64,000 nucleotides of DNA from the NCBI RefSeq assembly GCF_003334765.1, contig NZ_QOWT01000008.1; one strand, 5' to 3'. This document shows positions 49,066 to 49,861 of the stretch, in pieces (position 1 is the first letter of the stretch; every line of letters starts with the position of its first letter). The stretch comes from Escherichia coli. GTDB lineage: Bacteria; Pseudomonadota; Gammaproteobacteria; Enterobacterales; Enterobacteriaceae. The translations under genes were made by a program, and so were the position numbers. A model generated the notes under the pieces. That model was given only the letters and a program-made list of their open reading frames with translations. It was not told the DNA's origin and did not search any database.

Positions 49066-49159
49066 TGTACCGACCGGGCAGTGTTGCTGCCCGGTTCAAA
49101 CATCATGGGATTCTGTGGTAAACTTCTCGCGATTTTGTGAAATCCTGGTTGAGGTATCT

Positions 49160-49861
49160 CTGAACACACCGGCACAGCTCTCTTTGCCACTTTATCTTCC
49201 TGACGACGAAACCTTTGCAAGTTTCTGGCCGGGGGATAACTCCTCTTTACTGGCCGCGCTGCAAAACGTGCTGCGTCAGGAACATAGCGGTTACATCTAT
49301 CTCTGGGCACGCGAAGGCGCGGGGCGCAGCCATCTGCTGCACGCGGCTTGCGCGGAATTGTCGCAGCGTGGCGATGCGGTGGGCTATGTCCCGCTGGATA
49401 AACGCACCTGGTTTGTTCCGGAAGTGCTCGACGGTATGGAGCATTTGTCGCTGGTCTGTATCGACAACATTGAGTGTATTGCAGGCGATGAGTTGTGGGA
49501 GATGGCGATTTTCGATCTCTACAATCGAATTCTGGAATCGGGCAAAACACGGTTGTTGATCACCGGCGATCGTCCACCGCGGCAGTTGAATCTGGGATTA
49601 CCGGATCTCGCGTCGCGACTCGACTGGGGGCAGATCTACAAATTGCAGCCACTTTCTGATGAAGATAAGTTGCAGGCGCTACAGTTACGCGCGCGTTTGC
49701 GTGGTTTTGAACTGCCGGAAGATGTGGGGCGTTTCTTGCTGAAGCGGCTCGACAGAGAAATGCGCACGCTATTTATGACGTTGGATCAGTTGGATCGTGC
49801 GTCGATTACCGCGCAACGTAAGCTGACCATTCCGTTTGTGAAAGAAATTCTGAAGTTGTAG
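49160..49861 (+). CDS. hda: DnaA-inactivating AAA+ protein Hda, probable CUG start
   Basis: ORF track 49115..49861 (GTG, 248 aa); recalled functional start is an in-frame CTG ([11 protein letters not shown]) giving 233 aa. Confidence 0.7.

Follow-up and report, generated by a model that had tools for sequence, protein, structure and literature searches.

The window analysed here is a stretch of 64,000 nucleotides of the Escherichia coli contig NZ_QOWT01000008.1 (assembly GCF_003334765.1). The gene neighbourhood at about 49 kb consists of upp, uraA, hda, arsC/yfgD and bepA. The hda region was compared over 4 kb with that of E. coli K-12 MG1655 (NC_000913.3), where it lies in the reverse orientation, and every base was identical. 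The longest open reading frame on the + strand extended from a GTG at 49115 to 49861 and encoded 248 amino acids, and the coordinates that the first-pass annotation had given agreed exactly with the listing of open reading frames. The same annotation had remarked that there was no ATG near the 5' end, and the first in-frame ATG was indeed found only at 49436, codon 108 of the reading frame. The codons of start type in the first 90 nt of the frame were GTG 49115, ATC 49142, CTG 49145, CTG 49160 and TTG 49184. In the raw sequence the in-frame CTG at 49160-49162 was followed by AAC ACA CCG GCA CAG, which encodes NTPAQ. The features of the locus, with the evidence for each, are as follows.

49073..49095, + strand: GC-rich hairpin ACCGGGCAG-tgttg-CTGCCCGGT, with no T-run after it (sequence, inverted repeat I3)
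49115..49117, + strand: GTG that opens the 248-aa reading frame, not the start codon (TSS position, frame, Shine-Dalgarno, family model)
49116..49124, + strand: putative extended -10 element TGgTAAACT, overlapping the GTG of the 248-aa reading frame (consensus, conservation, TSS position)
49131..49159, + strand: 29-nt 5' UTR of the monocistronic hda mRNA (TSS at G 49131, SMRT-Cappable-seq, PMC6131387)
49151..49155, + strand: Shine-Dalgarno sequence GAGGT, in which GAGG ends 5 nt 5' of the CTG (sequence, conservation)
49160..49861, + strand: hda coding sequence as used, with a CTG start and 233 codons plus stop (equal to NC_000913.3 2618075..2618776, PGAP records)
49160..49162, + strand: CTG (CUG) initiation codon, decoded as fMet (conservation, PMC3531124)
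49175..49192, + strand: beta-clamp-binding motif QLSLPL, codons 6-11 (PMC5397184, numbering from the CTG)
49184..49186, + strand: in-frame TTG (Leu9), the 225-aa start of some gene callers, not the start (sequence, conservation)

Hda is an AAA+ protein that carries out the regulatory inactivation of DnaA when bound to the DNA-loaded beta clamp. It restricts the chromosome to a single replication initiation in each cell cycle, and its amount matters. The encoded protein matched the family model NF005982, "DnaA inactivator Hda", with a score of 476.6 bits against a cut-off of 268 over profile positions 1-235 of 235, and TIGR03420 with 281.4 bits against a cut-off of 194.8. The match to NF005982 covered residues 14-248 of the 248-aa reading frame, while residues 1-13 fell outside the model. 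The N-terminal motif QL[SD]LPL was present as QLSLPL, residues 6-11 when counted from the CTG, and the AAA+ nucleotide-binding residues and the Box VII arginine finger, R153, were found at their published positions, with G55, R56, S57, N103, R153 and R177 at the positions given in PMC5397184. In that study, structure 5X06 shows the segment 6-QLSLPL-11 of Hda on the clamp, and the identical E. coli Hda, together with the loaded clamp, stimulated the hydrolysis of DnaA-ATP, the RIDA activity (PMC5397184).

The first-pass annotation had placed the start of a 233-aa Hda at the CTG at 49160, and the curated annotation, the PGAP records, EcoGene 3.0 and the residue numbering of 5X06 all agreed with this assignment, as did the comparative and transcript start evidence described below. 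The curated MG1655 gene (b2496, NP_416991.2) occupies 2618075..2618776, a total of 702 nt, and its first base corresponds to window position 49160; the comparison with curated Hda that the annotation had called for led to the same CTG and the same 233 amino acids. The same 702-nt coding sequence with a CTG start, WP_001307333.1, was annotated by the RefSeq PGAP pipeline in four other E. coli genomes across the identity range. According to EcoGene 3.0 (PMC3531124), it was Su'etsugu et al. 2008 who reported the CUG start of hda. The Hda chains of PDB entry 5X06 consist of a tag followed by MNTPAQ..., 233 aa, and were identical to the window protein over 233 residues. Moreover, all 14 residue numbers quoted in PMC5397184 fitted a count that begins at CTG 49160; the residues checked were Q6-L11 (6-QLSLPL-11), E17, W23, G55, R56, S57, N103, R153 and R177. 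In coding sequence coordinates, start codon and 233-aa product, the window gene did not differ from E. coli K-12 hda (b2496; UniProt HDA_ECOLI; NP_416991.2 / WP_001307333.1). For E. coli itself the CUG start of hda was settled in 2008 and is part of the reference annotation, so that there is nothing new in this assignment. A full-text literature search returned no match that mentioned the hda start codon and none for the hda promoter.

The conservation of the start region was assessed in a set of 86 sequences, comprising the window, loci from 80 species of Enterobacteriaceae and one representative each of Yersinia, Erwinia, Hafnia, Dickeya and Proteus; codon columns were counted over the 81 Enterobacteriaceae sequences. 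The start CTG was invariant in all 86 Enterobacterales sequences, including 80 of the 80 Enterobacteriaceae species fetched. There were 31 columns in which leucine was invariant among the 81 sequences, and the start CTG was the only one that never changed codon, so that it is constrained as a nucleotide triplet and not only by the requirement for leucine. More generally, only 3 of 163 degenerate codon columns with an invariant amino acid were invariant in their nucleotides as well. The other two were codon 4, CCG (49169-49171), and codon 21, AGT (49220-49222).

The pattern of variation changed at the CTG. From codon 2 on, the mean entropy was 0.23, 0.09 and 0.70 bits at codon positions 1, 2 and 3, while upstream of the CTG it was 0.86, 1.02 and 0.78 bits, without three-base periodicity. 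Read as a codon, the triplet directly 5' of the CTG would specify 10 different amino acids across the species, and 46 of the 86 lacked any ATG, GTG or TTG in frame between the CTG and the first stop upstream of it. The segment from the GTG to the Shine-Dalgarno sequence contained indels that were not multiples of three, as follows from the distance of the -10 element to the CTG, which ranged from 33 to 39 nt. The T at -1 (49159) was almost invariant, with an entropy of 0.16 bits, and the remaining bases of the spacer varied freely. A U at -1 can extend the pairing with A37 of the initiator tRNA.

The Shine-Dalgarno sequence was nearly as constant as the codon that it serves: GAGG with a 5-nt spacer to the CTG was found in 85 of the 86 species, with a per-base entropy of at most 0.09 bits at positions -9 to -5. 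The leader and early coding region did not fold better than shuffled sequence (z = +1.41), a result compatible with an open initiation site.

The sequence around GTG 49115 appeared to have a different role. The conserved block at this site was TGTGgTAAACT, that is, TGn followed by TAAACT, and the pattern TGnTAnnnT was present at the homologous site in 86 of 86 species, 33-39 nt 5' of the CTG. For three Buttiauxella loci the script had picked up a chance match closer to the CTG (TATGGT, 10 nt upstream of it), and here the homologous element was taken directly from the sequences. The variants of the -10 hexamer, TAAACT, TAGACT, TACACT, TAAGCT, TAGTAT and TAGAAT, all retained T1, A2 and T6, the positions that characterise -10 elements. 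A TSS was predicted near 49131 from the -10 element, and the published one mapped to 49131 exactly: Supplementary Data 2 of the SMRT-Cappable-seq study (PMC6131387) lists an hda-only transcript (b2496) with a TSS at 2618805 on the reverse strand, which corresponds to window position 49131. This TSS precedes the CTG by 29 nt and follows GTG 49115 by 16 nt. The extended -10 element ended 6 nt before this mapped TSS. From the consensus, the conservation and the TSS position, we infer that TGgTAAACT is the extended -10 element of the hda promoter. Since the transcript begins at 49131, GTG 49115 is missing from the hda-only mRNA and, on this assignment, is part of the promoter DNA. A simple sigma-70 consensus scan of 48950-49350 called no promoter and no terminator, the former owing to a weak -35 region, and the promoter assignment consequently rests on the conservation of TGnTAnnnT together with the published TSS. 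The available text of the Cappable-seq study (PMC4782308), the Shigella M90T study (PMC7132871) and Romero et al. (PMC4681348) contained no hda entry that could be found. A read-through upp-uraA-hda transcript with a TSS at 2620909 is also listed (PMC6131387). The hairpin at 49073-49095, for which the terminator scan likewise gave no call, directly follows the uraA stop codon; its 3' arm, CCCGGTTC, was conserved and adjoins the weak -35 region of the hda promoter.

Three other accounts of the start were weighed against the CUG. Translation from GTG 49115 would give the 248-aa protein of older annotations and many automatic gene calls; this GTG opens the longest reading frame with a canonical start codon, the 248-aa version is widespread in databases, and the codon is contained in the read-through upp-uraA-hda mRNA, from which a trace of 248-aa Hda may be made. 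However, the hda TSS is 16 nt downstream of this GTG, which sits within the conserved extended -10 element and has no conserved Shine-Dalgarno sequence 5' of it. In most of the 86 species the frame was broken by indels or stops before the CTG; the homologous GTG, at -45 or -48, was in frame and open to the CTG in only about 13 of the 86 sequences, one of them the window, and even within E. coli a 1-nt insertion in one genome (L005) put it out of frame. The Hda family model NF005982 does not cover the 13 extra residues, and the curated annotation and the literature reject this start. By TSS, Shine-Dalgarno sequence, frame, family model and annotation it is largely refuted, and we consider it highly improbable. 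A further account, dual initiation, keeps CUG 49160 as the main start and adds a minor isoform from GTG 49115 on the read-through mRNA or from CTG 49145 or ATC 49142 on the hda mRNA. All three codons are present in frame and the read-through transcript exists, but neither the codons nor the frame that joins them to the CTG are conserved, and none has a Shine-Dalgarno sequence at a workable distance. CTG 49145 and ATC 49142 were rejected as starts on these grounds, and dual initiation as a whole is very unlikely.

The least probable of the three, to the point of being negligible, is a start at TTG 49184 (Leu9), which would give a 225-aa protein. TTG is a canonical bacterial start codon and the 225-aa version occurs on at least 1000 public contigs, but such a start would remove Q6-L7-S8 of the clamp motif QLSLPL that is seen on the beta clamp in 5X06 (PMC5397184). 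Moreover, of 81 sequences 43 had TTG at this codon, 37 had CTG and one had TTA, there was no SD-like sequence 5-10 nt upstream of it, and codons 2-8, which it would leave untranslated, were under clear coding constraint. The loss of the clamp motif, the non-conserved codon and the missing Shine-Dalgarno sequence speak strongly against it. The reading that the window gene is E. coli K-12 hda, with a CUG start at 49160, a Shine-Dalgarno sequence, a 29-nt leader, its own extended -10 promoter and a low output of Hda, is given a probability of about 0.95.

The first-pass annotation had also stated that annotation pipelines commonly mis-call the start of this gene. This was borne out in the wider databases, where the 233-aa, 248-aa and 225-aa versions of E. 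coli Hda each occur on at least 1000 public contigs and the other members of the cluster include a 241-aa call in Salmonella and a 200-aa call in Yokenella, but not in the RefSeq E. coli records checked, all five of which (four PGAP, one curated) had the CTG start. Outside the Enterobacteriaceae the commonest length of Hda was 235 aa, with the N-terminus M[LI]LNTP..., in Yersiniaceae, Erwiniaceae, Hafniaceae, Pectobacteriaceae and Morganellaceae, and NCBIfam NF005982 likewise has 235 positions. In the five sequences of this type in the comparison set (L084-L088; Yersinia, Erwinia, Hafnia, Dickeya and Proteus), the start region at locus positions 601-609 had the context GAG GTG CTT/ATT CTG AAY, so that the called GTG sits within the Shine-Dalgarno sequence and the CTG of the E. 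coli type is kept as codon 3. These orthologues share with E. coli hda the layout GAGGT-N4-CTG-AAY and the upstream TGnTAnnnT; unlike E. coli hda, they have a G after GAGGT, which creates the GTG within the Shine-Dalgarno sequence that was called as the start. Since this GTG has no Shine-Dalgarno sequence of its own, the 235-aa call is probably wrong, and judged from the sequence layout the 235-aa starts are probably mis-calls that are two codons too long. Both a 233-aa and a 235-aa Hda are held at NCBI for Hafnia paralvei, and likewise for Izhakiella australiensis. In the Proteus representative, Proteus myxofaciens, codon 3 after the CTG (locus positions 613-615) was ATG (LLNMPSQLSLPL), 11 nt after GAGG, and a start there would still keep the clamp motif; other Morganellaceae sequences had NTP where Proteus myxofaciens has this ATG.

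Several further observations were made in the window and in the genomes that share it. The uraA-hda segment was found in 5426 of 5426 complete E. coli genomes, at 5429 matching places; one of these was on a record designated a plasmid, and two copies were present in at least one genome. In the complete E. coli chromosome NZ_CP102488.1 (match 1-722), base 1 of the record aligned with query base 161, the beginning of the hda CTG at window position 49160; hda may have been chosen instead of dnaA as the point to which the assembly was rotated, perhaps by a search for DnaA homologues that picked Hda. Between hda and arsC/yfgD, at 49861-49968, there were nested imperfect inverted repeats (GCCGGATAAGACG / CGTCGCATCCGGC and others) that look like REP/BIME elements. 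The Rfam matches at gathering score within the window were the following, all of which are expected in this part of the K-12 chromosome.

5507-5578: naRNA4
6295-6404: iscRS stability element
13779-14082: ryfA
14214-14422: IS128
27250-27341: sroE

The mechanism that best explains these findings begins with the hda-only transcript from 49131, which is probably driven by the extended -10 promoter at 49116-49124. On this mRNA the initiator fMet-tRNA reads CUG 49160 through codon positions 2 and 3 only, despite the mismatch at the first position, and the strong, optimally spaced Shine-Dalgarno sequence on a short, weakly structured 29-nt leader makes the CUG site usable. Structural work has found the first-position pairing at CUG to be weak (PMC11497404), and in reporter assays CUG initiation was about 1-2% of that at AUG (bioRxiv 10.1101/063800). 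The likely consequence of so inefficient a codon would be a level of Hda that is low and tightly set. The strict conservation of an inefficient codon suggests that low Hda output is under selection, and the weakness of the codon may itself have been selected, since none of the 86 species had swapped the CTG for a stronger start.

In infC, the weak AUU codon is the basis of IF3 autoregulation. Like hda, both infC (AUU) and yfjD (CTG) combine a weak, near-cognate codon read by the initiator tRNA with a good Shine-Dalgarno sequence, whereas the IF3 autoregulatory loop belongs to infC and the corresponding observation for hda is, at the level of sequence, the order-wide conservation of the CTG. 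According to EcoGene 3.0, yfjD is the second confirmed CTG start in E. coli (PMC3531124). A broader proposal is that the CUG is a selectively maintained feature of the Enterobacterales that throttles Hda dosage, possibly in a manner sensitive to IF3 or to growth rate, and that the 235-aa calls and NF005982 are two codons too long; taken as a whole, this is regarded as speculative and rather unlikely to be correct.

The additions to the known start are modest: the order-wide conservation of the CUG and its Shine-Dalgarno sequence, the location of the GTG within the promoter, and the 235-aa calls that are probably wrong. The practical value lies in annotation hygiene, as three N-termini of one protein circulate widely in public databases, and the correct N-terminus puts the clamp-binding motif at residues 6-11, in keeping with the 233-aa form used in the structural work cited above. 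If the CUG also made Hda synthesis sensitive to IF3 activity or to growth rate, in a manner comparable to the AUU start of infC, the control of replication initiation would be coupled to translational capacity.
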